Virus record (IMG/VR): IMGVR_UViG_2541047776_000001
Span: 1-10,428 of that record
DNA: 10,428 nt
Strand: one strand, 5' to 3'
Source of the DNA: a virus
Lineage: Duplodnaviria; Heunggongvirae; Uroviricota; Caudoviricetes
Shown: one piece after another, positions 1 through 3,000 of the stretch
Position numbering within the stretch: the stretch's first letter is position 1
Layout of the letters: each line of letters starts with the position of its first letter
Made by a program: the position numbers

Positions 1-3000
1 CAGTCCGGGCGGTAAATGCGTGGGGGCAGCAGGGAGATCCGGCGTCGGTATCGTTCCGGATTGCCGCACCGGCAGCACCGTCGAGGATTGAGCTGACGCC
101 GGGCTATTTTCAGATAACCGCCACGCCGCATCTTGCCGTTTATGACCCGACGGTACAGTTTGAGTTCTGGTTCTCGGAAAAGCGGATTACCGATATCAGG
201 CAGGTTGAAACCACAGCCCGCTACCTTGGCACGGGGCTGTACTGGATAGCCGCCAGTATCAATATCAGGCCGGGCTATGATTATTATTTTTACGTTCGCA
301 GTGTGAACACCGTTGGCAAATCGGCATTCGTGGAGGCTGTTGGTCAGCCGAGTGATGATGCATCCGGCTATCTGGATTTTTTCAAAGGCGAGATAGGGAA
401 AACCCATCTGGCTCAGGAGCTGTGGACGCAGATTGATAACGGTCAGCTTGCGCCTGACCTGGCTGAAATCAGGACGTCCATTAAGGATGTCAGCAATGAA
501 ATCACGCAGACCGTCAATAAGAAACTGGAAGACCAGAGTGCGGCAATTCAGCAGATACAGAAGGTTCAGGTTGATACAAATAATAATCTGAACAGCATGT
601 GGGCTGTGAAGCTGCAGCAGATGCAGGACGGACGCCTTTATATTGCGGGTATCGGTGTCGGTATTGAGAACACCCCCGACGGCATGCAGAGTCAGGTGCT
701 GCTGGCGGCAGACAGGATTGCGATGATTAATCCTGCAAATGGCAACACAAAACCGATGTTTGTTGGTCAGGGTGATCAGATATTCATGAATGAAGTGTTC
801 CTGAAATATCTGACGGCTCCCACCATTACTAGCGGCGGTAATCCTCCTGCATTTTCCATGACACCGGACGGAAAGCTGACCGCTAAAAATGCAGATATCA
901 GTGGCAGTGTGAATGCGAACGCCGGGACGCTCAACAACGTTACGATAAATGAGAACTGTCAGATTAAAGGGAAACTGTCAGCCAACCAGATTGAAGGCGA
1001 TATTGTCAAAACAGTGGGTAAGGCTTTCCCGCGGGACTCCCGGGCACCGGAGCGGTGGCCATCAGGGACCATTACCGTCAGGATTTATGACGATCAGCCG
1101 TTTGACCGGCAGATTGTTATTCCGGCGGTGGCATTCAGCGGTGCTAAACATGAGAGAGAGCATACTGATATTTACTCCTCATGCCGCCTGATAGTGAAGA
1201 AAAATGGTGCTGAAATTTATAACCGTACCGCGCTGGATAATACGCTGATTTACAGTGGTGTTATTGATATGCCAGCTGGTCACGGCCACATGACGCTGGA
1301 GTTTTCGGTGTCAGCATGGCTGGTAAATGACTGGTATCCCACAGCAAGTATCAGCGATTTGCTGGTTGTGGTGATGAAGAAAGGTAAGCGTCGTCTCAGC
1401 ACCGTCTGGCAGATCCTGAAATTCCTGAGAGAATAGTGGACACCAAATATGGTGGACGCTATCCATGAAATCATTAACCGCAGTGCGTAAAAAAAGCCCT
1501 AATTATCCCGTTGAGTTCAAAATCAAAATGGTTGAACTCTCGCATCGACCAGAGATCTCCGTAGCGCAACTCGCTCGTGAGCATGGGATCAACGATAATT
1601 TGCTGTTCAAGTGGCGCCAGTACTGGCGCGAAGGAAAACTACGTCCTCCTTCAACAACAGAAAACAACGTGCCTGAGCTGCTCCCGATAACACTTGATGC
1701 CGAAGATGTTGTCCCTACAACCTCCCCCCGGTCACAACCTGTAGCTACTGCGACACCTGAATCACTCAATATCAGCTGTGAAGTGACGTTCCGGCACGGA
1801 TCACTCCGTCTGAATGGTGCCATCAGTGAAAATATCCTGAACCTGCTGATACGGGAGCTCAAACGTTGATCCCATTACCATCAGGGACAAAGATCTGGCT
1901 GGTCGCTGGCATCACCGATATGAGAAACGGCTTCAACGGCCTGGCGGCAAAGGTGCAGACGACGCTGAAAGACGATCCGATGTCAGGTCACGTTTTTATC
2001 TTCCGTGGGCGTAATGGCAGTCAGGTAAAGCTCCTCTGGTCTACCGGCGATGGACTGTGTCTGCTGACCAAACGGCTGGAGCGCGGCCGCTTCGCCTGGC
2101 CGTCAGCCCGGGATGGCAAAGTGTTCCTCACACCGGCACAGCTGGCGATGCTGCTGGAAGGTATCGACTGGCGGCAGCCTAAAAGACTGCTTACGTCCCT
2201 GACTATGTTGTAAGCCTCTTTATCCTGGTCGACGCTGAATGAGCCTGGTAATATACCCGGTATGAGCAGCTCACTTCCTGACGATATCAATGCACTGAAA
2301 CGTCTCCTTGCCGAACAGGAGGCGCTGAACCGTGCCCTGCAGGAAAAGCTGAACGAGCGTGAACGCGAAATAGACCATCTGCAGGCACAGCTGGATAAGC
2401 TGCGCCGGATGAACTTCGGCAGCCGCTCGGAAAAAGTCTCCCGTCGTATCGCACAGATGGAAGCTGACCTGAAGGCACTTCAGAAAGAAAGTGATACCCT
2501 TACCGGTCGGGTTGACGACCCGGCCGTGCAGCGCCCGCTGCGTCAAACCCGCACCCGCAAACCGTTCCCCGAATCACTCCCCCGCGATGAAAAACGGCTG
2601 CTGCCGGCAGCGTCATGCTGCCCGGAATGTGGAGGCTCGCTGAGCTATCTGGGTGAGGATGCCGCCGAACAGCTGGAGCTGATGCGCAGCGCCTTCCGGG
2701 TTATCCGGACTGTACGTGAAAAGCATGCCTGTACTCAGTGCGATGCCATCGTGCAGGCCCCCGCGCCTTCACGGCCCATCGAGCGGGGTATCGCAGGACC
2801 GGGGCTGCTGGCCCGCGTGCTGATCTCAAAGTATGCAGAGCACACCCCGCTGTACCGCCAGTCTGAAATGTACGGCCGCCAGGGCGTGGAGCTGAGTCGT
2901 TCACTGCTGTCGGGCTGGGTGGATGCATGCTGCCGGCTACTGTCACCGCTGGAAGAAGCGCTTCAGGACTATGTGCTGACTGACGGTAAGCTCCATGCTG

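Follow-up and report, generated by a model that had tools for sequence, protein, structure and literature searches.

The DNA analysed here, a window of 10,428 nucleotides, carries a complete copy of the insertion sequence (IS) ISEc22 within the 3′ end of J, the tip attachment and host specificity gene of a lambdoid prophage. It is highly likely that this insertion, by which the native terminal residues ATAGISIS are swapped for an unrelated tail, represents a step of prophage decay in which J is probably impaired. The result bears mainly on annotation: J should be recorded as an allele disrupted by an IS and chimeric at its C-terminus, within a prophage that is probably defective. Its importance beyond annotation is small. 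The features used below are as follows, with the evidence for each in brackets.

1..1383, plus strand: 3′ part of J (lambdoid tip attachment / host specificity gene), native codons, frame 3 (Pfam, PDB gpJ matches, J of E. coli 94EC)
1376..1383, no strand: target-site duplication, left copy, GAAGAAAG (exact 8-bp direct repeat with 3838-3845)
1383..1436, plus strand: chimeric J end, 17 codons of the IS left end (GKRRL... tail) and TAG stop at 1434-1436 (translation)
1384..3837, plus strand: complete ISEc22 (IS66 family), 2,454 bp, in the same orientation as J (100% identity to annotated copies)
1465..1869, plus strand: tnpA, IS66 family, 134 aa, HTH_Tnp_1 (Pfam PF01527; RefSeq annotation of identical copies)
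1866..2213, plus strand: tnpB, IS66 Orf2-like, 115 aa (Pfam PF05717, E 1.6e-38)
2262..3800, plus strand: IS66 DDE transposase (tnpC), 512 aa (Pfam DDE_Tnp_IS66 PF03050, E 5e-107)
3838..3845, no strand: target-site duplication, right copy, GAAGAAAG (exact 8-bp direct repeat with 1376-1383)
3845..3871, plus strand: displaced native J 3′ end, now untranslated, GCC ACC GCA GGC ATC AGT ATC AGC TGA = ATAGISIS* (identical to the intact J end of 94EC)
3890..3909, plus strand: terminator-like hairpin with a T-run, normally just after the J stop (consensus scan)
3939..4538, plus strand: lom (Ail/Lom outer-membrane protein), 199 aa, intact (Pfam Ail_Lom, E 3e-125)

Structure of the insertion and the chimeric J end

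The window encodes the last 460 native residues of J up to K1151, in a protein that comprises 1,159 aa when intact; the left edge of the window cuts the gene, and its 5′ two-thirds lie outside. The first-pass annotation had proposed that the J frame runs across the insertion boundary, and translation of positions 3-1439 agrees with this, since the frame crosses 1383/1384 and ends at the TAG stop at 1434-1436. The same translation shows the replacement of ATAGISIS by 17 IS-encoded residues, the first new codon (GGT) being split between G1383 of the target and GT of the IS. The native 3′ end was correctly located at 3846-3871, with G3845 completing its first codon, and all ten contigs with this lom have the identical end. 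Compared to the native tail, the new one is longer and has a net charge of approximately +4 instead of approximately 0. Its length is no more than chance gives: random frames in the window run for a median of 18 codons to the first stop, and 52% of random entries run for at least 17.

The insert, previously recognized only as an IS, can be identified as ISEc22 of the IS66 family, which shows 100% identity over 2,454 bp to many copies on E. coli chromosomes and plasmids that are annotated in RefSeq as 'IS66-like element ISEc22 family transposase'. It starts with GTAAGCGT and ends with ACGCTTAC, of which the terminal bases are complementary at 8/8 positions, with scattered matches further in. 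The ends of IS66 elements typically begin with GTAAGCG, and the insert has imperfect inverted repeats with this start. IS66-family elements also make 8-bp target duplications; the 8-bp repeat found here does not extend on either side and is present as a single copy in the empty site of 94EC. The three genes tnpA, tnpB, and tnpC are consecutive, as in the IS66 organisation, and the transposase has further Pfam matches to zf-IS66, LZ_Tnp_IS66, and the IS66 C-terminal element (PF13005, PF13007, and PF13817). In length, gene order, termini, and 8-bp duplication, the window copy is the same as ISEc22 and shows no difference in the element itself, whereas its insertion site is new, with no counterpart in 5,426 complete E. 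coli genomes.

Empty site and distribution among strains

When the IS and one duplicate are removed, the window differs from E. coli 94EC by 2 mismatches in 7,966 bp. This strain encodes an intact 1,159-aa J ending in VVVMKKATAGISIS (KKATAGISIS), from which the J part of the window (1..1383) differs by one nucleotide, and the IS-less reconstruction gives the same breakpoint as 94EC. The intact 1,159-aa J adjoins an identical lom in 10/10 contigs, and the uninterrupted J-lom junction is present in 3,365 of the 5,426 complete E. coli genomes. The J-IS junction of the window has no colinear match in these 5,426 genomes by megablast, which returned two-piece matches only; these trace to another ISEc22 insertion, that of the O26-type genomes, which occupies the J-lom spacer. 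The exact junction also gave no match in the GTDB species representatives (two patterns) or in JGI metagenome contigs. The insertion looks recent and strain-specific because the IS has not diverged from other copies, the two target repeats match perfectly, only 2 of 7,966 flanking positions distinguish the window from an IS-free strain, and the junction is found in no other genome searched.

The first-pass annotation had itself named intact homologues ending naturally in GKRRL... as the case that would speak against a chimera. Such proteins were looked for and not found among the 120 homologues listed, the best of 155 at the E-value cut-off; none of the 120 covers the tail, the best query coverage being 93%. 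A natural J variant with this end was rejected, as no listed homologue covers the tail and the junction is absent from the genomes and contigs searched. Misplacement of a repeated IS into J during assembly, which would be favored by the multi-copy occurrence of ISEc22 in many E. coli genomes, has a practically negligible probability and was likewise rejected: the 8-bp duplication is perfect, as IS66-family elements make it, and removal of the IS and one repeat precisely restores both the frame and the sequence found at the empty site in 94EC.

Domains and predicted fold of the chimeric J

The 477-aa J fragment has Pfam matches to Ig_J_second, Phage_Tail_Tip, and Ig_GpJ_C, which is the domain series of lambda-type J, where an FNIII/Ig_J part is followed by the central fibre and the receptor-binding domain, and phmmer searches against PDB sequences match the gpJ proteins of lambda and A8 with E values of 1e-177 to 1e-183. 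Lambda gpJ (PDB codes: 8XCK, 8XCJ, and 8IYK) shares this domain series, and its receptor-binding domain is 42-43% identical to that of the window J, whose predicted fold matches it with a TM score of 0.8; lambda gpJ has a KKxxxGIS[IV]x end, whereas the window allele has the 17 IS-encoded residues there. The best PDB match is the A8 gpJ chimera (PDB codes: 9WCA and 9WCB), whose OmpC-binding domain derives from a prophage, with approximately 58% identity in the receptor-binding domain. Its intact native tail, KKSTAGISIS, is nearly identical to the KKATAGISIS lost from the window allele, but A8 belongs to another loop and sequence class (e.g., RTNSYASG in A8), and therefore the use of OmpC cannot be assumed for the window J.

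AlphaFold2 models were compared for the chimeric domain and for the native domain, the latter represented by a native relative (P0001) that is 99% identical over the domain. The models are monomers, whereas lambda-type J typically acts as a trimeric central fibre with an outer-membrane receptor, and in these monomers the core strands are the same in the chimeric and native forms. The chimeric model matches the receptor-binding domains of A8 and lambda gpJ with TM scores of 0.78-0.81, and the Ig-like core of the chimera is predicted to be intact, including the last β-strand, DLLVVVM. The chimeric tail is modelled with low confidence (pLDDT ~55) as a helix outside the Ig-like core, and the native tail in the monomer is modelled as coil (pLDDT <50), so that the native tail could be flexible and dispensable.

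Conservation of the J C-terminus

The lost residues belong to a motif conserved at the J terminus, KK-x-x-x-G-I-S-[I/V]-x, which always has exactly eight residues after KK and which the chimeric J lacks. Phages retain the motif even when their receptor-binding domains share only ~40% identity and recognize different receptors, as illustrated by lambda, a LamB binder ending in KKQALGISVV, and the OmpC-binding A8 chimera ending in KKSTAGISIS (Brödel et al. 2024, PMC11338833). Among plaque-forming phages, it is found in PhiR55_1, with a domain identity of 98.6%, and in phage 21, lambda, mEp460, and Kati, with identities of 39-43%. The motif codons of these five phages differ synonymously, and conservation therefore acts at the protein level. 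In 24 sequences with receptor-binding-domain identity down to 61%, the tail residues T, A, G, I, and I are invariant. The Pfam Ig_GpJ_C alignment covers 135/135 positions in P0001 and positions 1-129 of 135 in the chimera. For builders of chimeric gpJ delivery particles, this length-invariant KKxxxGIS[I/V]x end would be worth keeping intact.

Receptor specificity of lambda J resides in a C-terminal domain of ~150-170 residues, from which four loops reach into the receptor (PMC11101478; PMC6646904). The earlier statement that the extreme C-terminus of J carries specificity thus holds for the C-terminal domain and not specifically for the last eight residues. In the alignment, L1127 of lambda falls within the replaced segment, and the L1127P change (T3380C) has been found repeatedly in mutants affected in host range or adsorption (PMC3176204; PMC5046904). 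The L1127P phage is viable (PMC3176204), and the lambda J tail therefore tolerates at least point changes. In the literature searched, no paper on truncation or extension of the J C-terminus was found, and the lambda gpJ-LamB and Ur-lambda papers contain nothing specific on residues 1125-1132.

Plausible effects on J function

In the sequence of events that we propose, ISEc22 would have transposed into the J 3′ end of a lambdoid prophage that occupies the argU/DLP12 site, landing between codons 1151 and 1152 of 1,159 and duplicating its 8-bp target GAAGAAAG, and the J frame now reads 17 codons of the IS left end before the stop. The resulting protein would retain the Ig-like receptor-binding core, lose ATAGISIS, and gain a longer, basic, and unrelated peptide. 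Its function could be weakened or abolished at the level of trimer packing, coupling of the receptor-binding domain to the fibre, or adsorption. Judged from the sequence comparisons, loss or impairment of J function appears to be the likeliest outcome and a change of receptor less likely, because the replaced residues form a conserved motif common to domains for different receptors. The suggestion that adsorption is either abolished or changed could accordingly be retained in its first part, to which the conserved motif and L1127P lend weight, with the second part appearing less likely.

A somewhat unlikely, but still appreciable, alternative is that the chimeric J is fully functional, the last eight residues being dispensable and the 17-residue appendage being tolerated without effect on adsorption. 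It would agree with the coil predicted for the native tail and the unchanged core strands of the modelled chimera, with the viability of lambda L1127P, and with the last strand, which appears from strand topology and the published loops (PMC11101478) to point away from the four receptor-binding loops. However, conservation of the motif, with its length exactly kept, reaches down to ~40% domain identity despite synonymous codon variation, the tail lies within a curated Pfam domain, position 1127 affects both adsorption and host range (PMC3176204, PMC5046904), and the new tail differs from the native one in length and charge. The opposite idea, that the basic tail confers a new or altered adsorption property, seems extremely improbable. 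Its basic character and low-confidence AlphaFold2 helix are compatible with such a role, but the tail is as long as expected by chance, the allele is a singleton in the genomes and contigs searched, no listed homologue has the tail, the receptor-contacting loops are unchanged, and the prophage lineage appears defective.

The main effect might alternatively be on expression, as the IS now stands between J and the terminator, lom, and side-fibre genes that follow it and could act through polarity, separation of lom from an upstream promoter, or inclusion of the transposase genes in the late transcript. The hairpin at 3890-3909, which in phages mEp460 and 21 has an annotated rho-independent terminator as its positional counterpart, is now 2.45 kb beyond the chimeric stop, with the IS between the J stop and both the hairpin and lom; a gap of 28 nt separates the chimeric stop from the start of tnpA, which is encoded on the same strand. 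Moreover, 43 O26-type genomes have an ISEc22 copy of this orientation within the J-lom spacer, with J undamaged. We regard this explanation as rather improbable, since a consensus scan finds no plus-strand promoter in 1200-4100, lom keeps its own upstream spacer of 67 bp as a leader, and terminators are generally passed by the Q-antiterminated late transcription of lambdoid phages. By position, the ISEc22 tnpA-B-C genes lie in the path of phage late transcription, and the near-full-length J may still assemble. It is nevertheless very unlikely that induction of the prophage triggers a surge in ISEc22 transposase expression, tying IS mobility to the lytic switch, and/or that the basic tail alters engagement of the tail tip with the cell surface.

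The insertion as a probable step in prophage decay

Impairment of J, the preferred reading, has to be seen against the state of the prophage lineage. The head protease gene (gpC homologue) is a pseudogene with an in-frame stop at approximately codon 236 in both 94EC and AHS8C65RI, the two closest IS-free relatives examined, in which the side-fibre region is also decayed; the source prophage's own copy of the protease gene lies outside the window, and side-fibre assembly gene fragments are found in the window region. The lineage was probably already defective because these two relatives carry the head protease stop. The proposal that the IS marks the prophage as defective is thus probably right about the defect, with the qualification that the IS would not be the sole lesion. 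The biological cost of the insertion was probably small, given the protease stop and decayed side-fibre region of the relatives, and the insertion is most readily viewed as a further stage in the decay of the prophage. The pattern is the same as in the general IS-driven decay of E. coli lambdoid prophages, without substantive difference, the other lesions being known here from close relatives. Collectively, this is probably ordinary decay by a known IS, in which the insertion site is new, rather than a new receptor-binding design.

Other ISEc22 insertions near J

ISEc22 is also found within ~750 bp of the J 3′ end, in the same orientation and with its own 8-bp duplications, in the O26:H11 strain 11368 and its relatives and in EC21Z-014. 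The O26 insertion lies after the J terminator and leaves J intact (1,131 aa), and that of EC21Z-014 splits J ~650 bp before its stop, where RefSeq calls J a pseudogene; compared to these, only the window allele gives a near-full-length chimeric J. Thus, at least three separate landings of ISEc22 in the same orientation have occurred around the J-lom junction of different prophages, and ISEc22 could favor this region of lambdoid late operons as an insertion target.

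ISEc22 within the J reading frame

The left edge of the window falls within the lambdoid gene J, and translation of frame 3 from base 3 gives an open stretch of 477 codons, on which Pfam places the Ig_J_second, Phage_Tail_Tip and Ig_GpJ_C receptor-binding domains. The closest solved structures are those of lambda gpJ and of the prophage-derived 'A8' gpJ chimera. The frame crosses the insertion boundary, as the first-pass annotation had it, and stops at a TAG at 1434-1436. A script check places the left end of the insert, GTAAGCGT, from 1384 and the right end, ACGCTTAC, up to 3837; these 2,454 bp lie between two exact direct copies of the 8-bp GAAGAAAG, at 1376-1383 and 3838-3845, a repeat that extends no further on either side. 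Removal of the insert and one repeat copy regains the native J end, ...VVVMKKATAGISIS and its stop, of which the part beyond the insertion is now displaced to 3846-3871, with G3845 completing its first codon. The coordinates, both terminal peptides and the displaced end reported in that annotation were all correct on the same check.

The insert is 100% identical over its full length to many copies on E. coli chromosomes and plasmids, which RefSeq labels IS66-like element ISEc22. Both the 8-bp duplication and the GTAAGCG termini are typical of IS66-family elements. It encodes three proteins (assigned with Pfam), the ATG of the first lying 28 nt downstream of the chimeric J stop on the same strand.

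Genes of the inserted element
1465-1869, J strand, HTH protein, 134 aa (tnpA)
1866-2213, J strand, IS66 Orf2-like protein, 115 aa
2262-3800, J strand, IS66 DDE transposase, 512 aa, with zinc-finger, leucine-zipper and C-terminal modules

By transposition ISEc22 has entered J at codon 1151/1152, which would give a J of 1,151 + 17 residues, assuming that the 5′ part of the gene outside the window matches its relatives. Depending on phase, the left end of the element offers 11, 16 or 0 whole codons until a stop, and entries at random positions and frames in this window run for a median of 18 codons to the first stop, with 52% reaching at least 17. The length of the chimeric tail is an accident of phase and carries no meaning in itself.

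The empty site and the rarity of the junction

The insertion is real. Three complete genomes match the window to the right of the element (3838-10428) with 100% identity; one of them, E. coli 94EC, has an intact J of 1,159 aa with lom, encoding an Ail/Lom outer-membrane protein, 67 bp further on. With the element and one repeat copy taken out, the window agrees with 94EC at all but 2 of 7,966 positions, and the two share the breakpoint GAAGAAAG/CCACC. All ten contigs encoding an identical Lom carry an intact 1,159-aa J ending in KKATAGISIS, and in eight the last 468 residues are the same as those of the window's native J. The uninterrupted site is found in 3,365 of 5,426 complete E. coli genomes (200-bp reconstruction, at least 80% coverage). 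A search of these 5,426 genomes for the J-IS junction found no colinear match, and neither GTDB species representatives nor JGI metagenome contigs contained an exact copy. The IS-encoded tail is covered by none of the best 120 of 155 homologous proteins that passed the E-value cut-off (top query coverage, 93%), and a homologue naturally ending in GKRRL..., the case envisaged at first pass against a chimeric end, is absent among those 120. Since the element is identical, the duplication perfect and the flanks near-identical, the insertion looks recent, and it appears confined to the source strain as far as the collections searched show.

The conserved end of native J

The four bottom loops, L1-L4, of the Ig-like receptor-binding domain of lambda gpJ enter LamB, and receptor specificity resides in the whole C-terminal domain (PMC11101478). 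The first-pass view that the extreme C-terminus carries specificity holds for that domain as a whole, but the last eight residues are conserved rather than variable. Across 24 aligned J C-termini, with identity to the window domain down to 61%, five tail residues (T, A, G, I and I) do not vary. Every lambda-type J examined, loci L016-L020 among them, has KK and then exactly eight residues, x-x-x-G-I-S-[I/V]-x, and this end is common to domain classes that bind LamB, to those that bind OmpC and to others, down to ~40% identity. The end is KKQALGISVV in lambda, a LamB binder; KKSTAGISIS in phage 21 and in the OmpC-binding A8 chimera (PMC11338833; PDB 9WCA/9WCB); KKATAGISIS in PhiR55_1, which was grown on E. 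coli C and has a 98.6% identical domain; and KKAASGISIR in mEp460 and Kati, plaque-forming phages whose domains share only 39-43% identity. The tail codons vary synonymously among phages (ACC/ACA, GCA/GCC, GGC/GGT, and AGC/AGT), so the conservation is at the protein level and more than mere shared DNA. All 135 positions of the Ig_GpJ_C model align in a native relative and only 1-129 in the chimera. No discussion of the motif was found in the gpJ literature searched.

By alignment, the breakpoint falls between lambda K1124 and Q1125, and the replaced block corresponds to lambda 1125-1132, L1127 included. L1127P (nucleotide T3380C) is described as a classical extended-host-range change (Werts et al. 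1994, via PMC3176204), and in a coevolution experiment (PMC5046904) it belonged to the line of descent. Because the block holds this site, the J tail influences adsorption, though it is no variable specificity loop.

The conserved end has been lost naturally in one further case, the E. coli J protein P0005 (5.3-Mb contig), which is of the same receptor-binding-domain class and ends in ...VVVMKKSHCRHHD where KKATAGISIS would stand. As in the window J, the change sets in exactly at KK, here presumably through a frameshift.

Predicted structure and consequences for J

The AlphaFold2 monomer model of the chimeric domain (mean pLDDT 80) has eight core strands, DLLVVVM being the last, and matches the A8 and lambda domains with TM 0.78-0.81. 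The IS-encoded tail is modelled as a low-confidence helix (pLDDT about 55); the native relative has the same strands and a coil for its tail (pLDDT below 50). Eight alternating strands would put four loops on one face, which fits L1-L4, and the strand count suggests that the C-terminus is on the far side from these loops, towards the fibre shaft. In the chimera, core fold and receptor-contacting loops are probably unchanged. The lost conserved peptide has no defined conformation in the monomer model, as would be expected if it packs on a neighbouring protomer or on the beta-prism above the domain.

The monomer models are compatible with either a harmful or a harmless tail swap. A conserved, length-invariant motif with an adsorption-relevant position has given way to a longer basic peptide (net charge about +3.8 vs about 0 for the native tail), so the chimeric J is more likely than not to be impaired in assembly or adsorption. 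That J tolerates the change seems a good deal less probable, and a new specificity arising from the chimeric tail is very unlikely. The first-pass reading, by which adsorption could be abolished or changed, is partly supported: with the conserved motif gone, loss of function is more plausible than altered specificity. Apart from the protein itself, polarity of the element on lom and the side-fibre genes is possible, as is loss of the usual arrangement of a J stop followed by a terminator hairpin, and the late-operon transcript could read directly into tnpA and the other transposase genes.

Prophage context and decay

The 94EC prophage, of about 38 kb and carrying iss, occupies the DLP12 site, with tRNA-Arg/intD on one side and ompT-envY-nfrA on the other. 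In 94EC and AHS8C65RI, the two closest IS-free relatives examined, the gene for an S49 head protease, homologous to lambda gpC, is interrupted by an in-frame stop near codon 236 of 439.

Head protease genes with an in-frame stop
L004 13885-15204, 94EC
L015 5470-6789, AHS8C65RI

Lambda C is required for head assembly, so these two prophages are probably incapable of producing viable phage. With relatives at 2/7,966 differences, the lineage was probably unable to make heads before the element arrived. The suggestion that the chimeric J marks a defective prophage is probably right, but the element is unlikely to be its sole lesion: the head-protease stop in relatives indicates that the prophage was probably already defective. 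Prophages are well known to decay through IS disruption of their structural genes.

Right-hand part of the window
4597-8600, side tail fibre region, decayed or mosaic-looking
7434-8099, class I SAM-dependent methyltransferase
8648-10132, alpha/beta hydrolase (TAP-like), 494 aa

The side-fibre region encodes a 686/688-aa protein with the prophage tail-fibre N-terminal domain only (Pfam), and it also holds two small ORFs and two tail-fibre assembly gene fragments; 8159-8464, for example, covers just the C-terminal part of Caudo_TAP. The methyltransferase and hydrolase genes, both on the opposite strand, are flanked by fibre-gene remnants and chromosomal ompT and resemble cargo or junction genes of the prophage's right end.

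Other ISEc22 insertions near J

Both the element and gene J were already known, and the window carries a new insertion allele. In O26:H11-type genomes (43 complete genomes; duplication GAAAAGCG), ISEc22 lies in the same orientation just past the J terminator and before lom, and J is intact. In EC21Z-014 (duplication GTTTGTTG) it lies some 650 bp short of the J stop, again in the same orientation, and the annotation gives J as a pseudogene.

ISEc22 copies near J, all in J orientation
window 1384-3837
L002 4284-6737
L001 7001-9454

The target duplications differ among the three events (GAAGAAAG, GAAAAGCG, and GTTTGTTG), and the window allele is a third, independent one. The three insertions, each in a different E. 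coli prophage, lie around the J 3′ end and the J-lom spacer in a span of about 750 bp, and ISEc22 may have a regional target preference around J-lom.
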